Positions 32,677-32,895 of a stretch of 64,000 nt of DNA are shown here, one piece after another. Location: the NCBI RefSeq assembly GCF_003334315.1, contig NZ_QOWR01000005.1; one strand, 5' to 3'. The DNA comes from Escherichia coli (lineage in GTDB: Bacteria > Pseudomonadota > Gammaproteobacteria > Enterobacterales > Enterobacteriaceae). The translations under genes and the position numbers were made by a program. The notes beneath the pieces were generated by a model. It searched no databases, had not been told where the DNA came from, and was given only the letters and a program-made list of their open reading frames with translations. The number at the start of each line of letters is the position of its first letter. Position 1 is the first letter of the stretch.

Positions 32677-32851
32677 GACTGCTTTACACAACCTTTTTGC
32701 ACGTCTTTTCCCCAGGCGCGCGGCGAAAGAAGACTTGTGCCAGGGCAAAGGTTAGTTTTCGGATGGAATAATCTTCTTTCATAACCATTTGAATATAAAA
32801 TAACTTTATCTCAAACCGTTATCATTTTGACTAAAGTCAACGAAAATAATA

Positions 32852-32895
32852 TTGCCGCCTTGAAGAAAGGAGGTATAATCCGTCGATTTTTTTTG
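32852..32895 (+). promoter_or_regulatory. upp promoter with T8 initially-transcribed tract (UTP-sensitive reiterative transcription)
   Basis: -35 TTGCCG (32852-32857), -10 TATAAT (32874-32879), then GATTTTTTTTG at 32885-32895. Confidence 0.6.

Follow-up and report, generated by a model that had tools for sequence, protein, structure and literature searches.

Which signals control transcription from the divergent spacer between purMN and upp-uraA of Escherichia coli, and what, in particular, is the perfect palindrome that lies upstream of the upp promoter? The region was studied within a window of 64,000 nucleotides, that is, the whole stretch of E. coli DNA analysed. An earlier note on this DNA had recognized the T8 tract of the upp leader and had left the palindrome unexplained, suggesting either a protein-binding site or a -35-like element. 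According to the list of open reading frames, ppk, purN, and purM on the minus strand face upp, uraA, and hda on the plus strand, with the ATG start codon of upp at 32922. The 401 bases around the two elements show 100% identity to O157:H7 genomes, where purM and upp are annotated (RefSeq), and this region is found in 5425 of 5426 complete E. coli genomes.

The upp-uraA region very probably carries two known controls, a UTP-dependent slippage switch and oxygen control by FNR. This reading is based on the anatomy of the sequence, FNR occupancy in vivo, FNR-dependent expression, and the conservation of both the FNR box and the T tract, with the following features involved:

32827..32840, no strand assigned: FNR-binding site TTGACTAAAGTCAA (sequence, published ChIP, plasmid deletion, conservation)
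32852..32857, plus strand: -35 hexamer TTGCCG of the upp promoter (promoter scan; 16-bp spacer to the -10 hexamer)
32874..32879, plus strand: -10 hexamer TATAAT of the upp promoter (sequence, promoter scan)
32885..32886, plus strand: alternative transcription starts at G6 and A7, numbered from the -10 hexamer (position from the sequence; start assignment as reportedly made for this promoter)
32887..32894, plus strand: T8 tract in the initially transcribed region, site of UTP-dependent reiterative transcription (sequence, literature)
32922..33548, plus strand: upp, coding sequence of uracil phosphoribosyltransferase (list of open reading frames, RefSeq annotation of the identical region)
33634..34923, plus strand: uraA, uracil permease, second gene of the operon (list of open reading frames, annotation offset from upp)

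The palindrome, the TATAAT hexamer, and the T8 tract were all read where the earlier note had placed them. TTGCCG (32852–32857) and TATAAT, separated by 16 bp, form the only sigma-70-like promoter match found by the promoter scan in 32590–32930. The order downstream is TATAAT-CCGTC-G32885-A32886-T8 (32887–32894)-G32895; thus GATTTTTTTTG, described earlier as directly following a canonical -10, does follow such a hexamer, but not directly, as five bases, CCGTC (32880–32884), intervene, and therefore G and A are the sixth and the seventh bases after TATAAT.

The assignment of the T8 tract to UTP-sensitive start-site switching and slippage at upp is right and is textbook knowledge, the promoter being described by Shin 2020 and by a 2025 NAR paper, both of which cite Tu & Turnbough 1997 and Cheng 2001. 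Shin 2020 names upp-uraA, with the sequence 5'-GATTTTTTTTG, along with pyrBI and codBA as E. coli promoters with reiterative transcription, and according to the 2025 NAR paper, slippage at codBA and upp is triggered indirectly by start-site switching at excess UTP and is non-productive. As related in the citing papers, the response of expression and start choice to UTP has been published for the upp promoter, and the published promoter, so far as these papers quote it (Tu & Turnbough 1997; Cheng 2001), has the same -10 hexamer, discriminator, and GATTTTTTTTG as the window, with no difference.

As is characteristic of the UTP-sensitive class, the T run occupies +2/+3 onward, right after a strong -10 hexamer. 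Starts at G6 of upp are reportedly productive, and those at A7 are said to slip. This assignment is consistent with the 5' sequence given by Shin 2020, and the GA dinucleotide is compatible with two adjacent starts. Pyrimidine control would require no repressor: RNA polymerase at TTGCCG-16-TATAAT would start at either G6 or A7; at high UTP, A7 would be favoured, and the AUUU... transcript would slip repeatedly on the T8 tract and be released, and at low UTP, transcripts started at G6 would be extended normally. Like codBA and pyrBI, the upp promoter has a T run immediately downstream of the start, slips in a UTP-dependent manner, and releases non-productive transcripts; like codBA, it also switches start sites. 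The tracts differ in length, T8 at upp vs. T6 at codBA and T3 at pyrBI (Shin 2020), and, unlike codBA and pyrBI, upp has an upstream FNR site.

For cross-species comparison, loci of 80 Enterobacterales species were fetched with the Upp protein, a set that does not include Salmonella and Klebsiella. TATAAT followed by a start purine and a run of T7–T9 is present in 79 out of 80 species-level sequences, the exception being Brenneria. In the 79 species where the promoter could be anchored, the run is T8 in 46, T7 in 24, and T9 in nine, the start dinucleotide is GA in 78, and the discriminator between TATAAT and GA is GC-rich and has five bases in nearly all species. Discriminators CCGGC, CCCGC, or CTCGC are seen across species, and CCGTC in E. 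coli. Just upstream of the -10 hexamer (window 32865–32884; loci L004–L081), most species have AAAAAGCGG, and E. coli has GAAAGGAGG; this part of the spacer and the discriminator are about as conserved as the -10 hexamer itself, which is unusual for promoter spacer DNA. In Escherichia albertii (locus L002, approximately 1464 to 1474), the position equivalent to window 32885, that is, G6, is occupied by T (TATAATCCGTCTATTTTTTTT). Such a promoter would lose the start reported as productive, and hence pyrimidine control of upp may differ in this species; alternatively, the change may be strain-specific.

The palindrome itself, TTGACTAAAGTCAA at 32827–32840, is a perfect 6-2-6 inverted repeat. Its rarity alone is no argument, since perfect 6-2-6 palindromes are at the chance level in the window (22 vs. 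18.5 ± 3.6 in Markov simulations). More informative is its fit to a specific motif: TTGACtaaaGTCAA matches the FNR consensus TTGATnnnnATCAA (TTGAT-N4-ATCAA) at eight out of 10 positions with the same 5-4-5 geometry, as an FNR site should, and its two mismatches are symmetric, falling on the innermost position of each half-site. Boxes of the form TTGAY-N4-RTCAA number three in the window vs. 0.28 expected, and none of 100 shuffles reached three. Comparison with known transcription-factor sites, proposed earlier as a check, thus points to FNR, and a literal search of full texts found the reverse complement of the site in Grainger 2007.

Indeed, an identical box at this locus of E. coli K-12 has already been described (Grainger 2007; Myers 2013; Liu 2011). 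In Table 2 of Grainger 2007, a ChIP-chip peak of FNR is assigned to upp/purM, the motif being 5'-TTTCGTTGACTTTAGTCAAAATGA-3' (the reverse complement of window 32822–32845) and the site centre K-12 coordinate 2,618,979.5; relative to the starts of upp and purM, this centre is placed at -51.5 and -192.5, respectively, and transcriptome studies are noted as having detected the target too. For conversion of coordinates we used window = 32840 - (K-12 coordinate - 2,618,976), so that K-12 2,618,976–2,618,989 corresponds to window 32840–32827; the published yfgF/yfgG, hyfD, guaB/xseA, and purMN PurR sites are all found exactly at the window coordinates that this formula predicts. Myers 2013, an independent confirmation, shows a peak of FNR at 2,618,981 in each of five datasets (ChIP-chip and ChIP-seq), lists TTGACTTTAGTCAA as a high-quality predicted site (PWM score 13.58, ln p -12.08), and describes the upp/purM site as free of masking by nucleoid proteins. 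The same 14-mer was named the FNR site of the upp-purMN spacer by Liu, Aedo and Tse-Dinh 2011, and deletion of 12 bp, TGACTTTAGTCA, from a multicopy clone of the spacer weakened a phenotype that the authors attributed to FNR titration (Liu 2011).

Hence, the palindrome was wrongly called unexplained, as it is a published FNR site, whereas the suggestion that it might be a protein-binding site has gained support from FNR ChIP and from conservation of the box across species; one form of the mutagenesis proposed for it, the plasmid deletion of Liu 2011, had already been carried out. As both the T8 element and the FNR site have been described in E. coli before, the main gain is one unexplained feature fewer.

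Published expression data mostly agree with activation. Table S8 of Myers 2013 gives upp-uraA as "Activated," with a difference between the wild type and delta-fnr in two microarrays and in RNA-seq; this conflicts with Tables 2 and S9 of the same paper, where upp is assigned to Category 3, with no FNR-dependent change in glucose minimal medium. ChIP of sigma-70 gives a higher signal at the spacer under anaerobic (13532) than under aerobic conditions (9388; Myers 2013). Another paper flags upp and uraA as "FA, FAec," a label read here as activated by FNR, also according to EcoCyc. Expression of both uraA and upp rises anaerobically in Yersinia intermedia, and in the other Yersinia species of our set, the box is centred at -52.5. 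Co-activation by NarL/NarP was considered and rejected: the heptamer TACYYMT is absent from 32600–32925, and nitrite dependence is thereby not accounted for. The "uracil permease" of a Salmonella Fur-regulon paper is yjcD and is irrelevant to uraA.

Conservation of the box was assessed with a threshold of at least eight matches out of 10 to the FNR consensus. A box of this type is present in 62 of the 79 species with an anchored promoter, matching the consensus at 10/10 positions in 26 species and at 9/10 in 31, and is missing in Pantoea, Erwinia, Mixta, and a few Enterobacteriaceae. Its centre lies 52.5 bp upstream of the A start in 35 species, 53.5 bp in 25, and 62.5 bp in two, both of the latter belonging to Mangrovibacter. 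The 33 distinct box sequences carry near-maximal information on TTGAT(C)/(G)ATCAA and close to none in the N4 spacer and the flanks; thus, as expected of an FNR site, orthologous promoters keep the half-sites constrained and the spacer free. Such an information profile is the signature of a protein-binding site and not of a hairpin.

The palindrome of E. coli and E. albertii is the weakest version of the box (8/10). Therefore, the conservation in relatives, by which the earlier note would have judged it, depends on what is compared: the exact palindrome is confined to these two species, but as a local variant of a widely conserved FNR box it does recur. That the weaker E. coli box was traded for a better -35 hexamer is contradicted by the cross-species -35 scores, as this hexamer scores alike whether or not a species carries the box (on average, 2.85 with the box vs. 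2.94 without, out of 6).

Within Escherichia, the 14-bp box is invariant in six aligned alleles, and SNPs flank it at 3 bp on the upstream and 7 bp on the downstream side. A 30-mer spanning the box is found in exact form in 5073 of 5426 complete E. coli genomes (93.5%) and not in the other 353, and 68% of complete E. coli genomes differ somewhere in the surrounding 83 bases. Likewise, the O157-like window differs from K-12 by flanking SNPs, e.g., T/G at 32847, the box itself being the same.

Less usual is the position of the box. Centred on 32833.5, it lies at -51.5 if counted from G32885 and at -52.5 if counted from A32886. Liu 2011 places the site at -61.5, and Grainger 2007 at -51.5; the former value would imply transcription from G32895, 16 nt beyond the -10 hexamer, and the sequence supports the latter. 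Promoters with FNR in the class II (-41.5) or class I (-61.5) position, such as dmsA, narG, nirB, and ydjX, have the same regulator and the same 5-4-5 box, and, as upp, they are sigma-70 promoters with a weak -35 hexamer, a strong -10 hexamer, and anaerobic up-regulation; unlike in these promoters, the upp box is centred 40.5 bp from the first base of the -10 hexamer (29.5 bp in class II and 49.5 bp in class I). The upp box is thus one helical turn away from both class I and class II, in a position not normally linked to activation, and the E. coli site lies outside the canonical activating positions (-41.5 ± 4, or -61.5 and beyond at helical-turn steps), only the Mangrovibacter box at -62.5 being canonical. 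According to Table 1 of Myers 2013, FNR is at -41.5 ± 4 in 19 out of 23 activated promoters, and the sites at -50.5 (ndh, pdhR) and -53.5 (cydAB), whose distance from the start is the same as at upp, belong to promoters repressed by FNR, whereas upp-uraA is reported as activated. The boxes of Mangrovibacter are exactly 10 bp further upstream, which suggests that the helical face matters.

Among papers other than the primary upp studies, our search turned up no dissection of FNR action at the upp promoter by footprint, point mutants, or lacZ fusion, and for this reason we infer, and do not assert, that bound FNR is the direct cause of activation and contacts RNA polymerase from about -52. In anaerobiosis, the [4Fe-4S] FNR dimer binds TTGAC-N4-GTCAA approximately 52 bp upstream of the start and would modestly raise upp-uraA transcription. 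The de novo route to pyrimidines relies on PyrD, an enzyme linked to respiration, and hence more uracil uptake and salvage without oxygen would be reasonable. What is mildly new here, judging from the compared loci, is that the box appears deeply conserved ("ancient") and fixed in an atypical position across Enterobacterales, and the conserved upp box at about -52 is a clean natural test case for activators of the CRP/FNR family acting at that distance.

The atypical position also invites a different interpretation of the same binding, namely, that FNR occupies the box but is neutral or mildly repressive at upp, and that the "activation" seen with delta-fnr is indirect, for example, via UTP pools acting on the T8 tract. 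FNR at about -52 could block docking of the alpha-CTD, as at ndh, and the association of -50.5 and -53.5 sites with repression at ndh, pdhR, and cydAB would fit, as would the placement of upp in Tables 2 and S9 of Myers 2013 among the peaks without a direct expression change. Further, FNR targets other genes of nucleotide metabolism, pyrD, carB, nrdD, and guaB (Grainger 2007; Myers 2013), and therefore nucleotide pools are plausibly altered in delta-fnr, as the indirect route implies. However, three E. coli datasets show the direction of activation, the anaerobic sigma-70 occupancy rises and does not fall, Yersinia raises upp and uraA anaerobically, and the Mangrovibacter box at -62.5 keeps the helical face in what is a class I position, which fits contact with RNA polymerase. 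We consider neutral or repressive FNR unlikely. Even less probable, in our estimate, is a reading suggested by the retention of the box at -52.5/-53.5 in most Enterobacterales, namely, that FNR acts at upp by a non-canonical route, for example, by shifting the choice between the G6 and A7 starts and hence escape from slippage; if true, oxygen sensing would be coupled to the reiterative-transcription switch, rather than acting by simple recruitment of the polymerase.

Could the palindrome instead be an operator of another regulator, e.g., the uracil-sensing TetR-family protein RutR with its box TTGACCAnnTGGTCAA? The consensus of RutR is a 16-bp palindrome with 6 bp between the TTGAC and GTCAA pentamers. 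The outer pentamers TTGAC...GTCAA are indeed common to both sites, and uracil sensing would suit a uracil-salvage operon, but here the pentamers are separated by 4 bp and not by 6 bp, the orthologous boxes converge on TTGAT-N4-ATCAA, the FNR consensus, and not on TTGACCA, the RutR paper makes no mention of upp, and the site is already accounted for by FNR ChIP data, so that a RutR-type operator has a negligible probability.

Equally hard to sustain is a chance repeat, or a -35-like TTGACT serving a further promoter of upp or a divergent one of purM: the palindromes of this type do occur at chance frequency, and TTGACT does match the -35 consensus at five out of six positions, but the promoter scan finds no -10 partner at 16–18 bp for either arm on either strand, contrary to what the earlier note had allowed for, the box is 192.5 bp away from the purM start, its position and half-sites are retained in 62 out of 79 species while the flanks drift, the Escherichia alleles keep it intact between close SNPs on both sides, and FNR occupies it in vivo according to published data.

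Two further candidates were discarded. For another promoter, either of class II and starting near 32875 or divergent and leftward, no credible -10 hexamer at a suitable distance is seen by eye or in the promoter scan. An intrinsic terminator or a structured RNA would need a hairpin with a 2-nt loop, which is sterically impossible; the terminator scan finds no terminator-like site at the palindrome, and the palindrome region has no Rfam match at E ≤ 1.

Several other sites in the window deserve mention. A perfect-consensus FNR box, TTGATATATATCAA, at 24715–24728 is the yfgF/yfgG site of Myers 2013 (score 16.08, with a ChIP peak). The FNR-type box TTGACCAACGTCAA at 48796–48809 lies inside hyfD; Myers 2013 gives it a predicted score of 14.1 without an FNR ChIP peak and flags Fis ChIP-seq at the site. 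At 19563–19576, GTGAGCGAGATCAA corresponds, on the opposite strand, to the FNR site TTGATCTCGCTCAC published for guaB/xseA, which was ChIP-positive in both FNR studies.

The spacer that holds the upp FNR box also holds the purMN PurR operator AAGCAAACGTTTGCGA at window 32661–32676, corresponding to K-12 2,619,140–155 (Cho 2011); the two sites are 157 bp apart (approximately 165 bp from centre to centre). In E. coli strain MEW (locus L082), an IS1 element at 2763–3460 is inserted in the purM-upp spacer, at a point equivalent to approximately 32799–32806 of the window, about 21 bp upstream of the FNR box, and parts the box and the upp promoter from the purM side. Finally, between the upp stop and the uraA start, at window 33564–33593, a terminator-like hairpin, AAAGCCGACT...AGTCGGCTTT, is followed by a second T8 run, and this element may act inside the upp-uraA operon as a terminator or attenuator.
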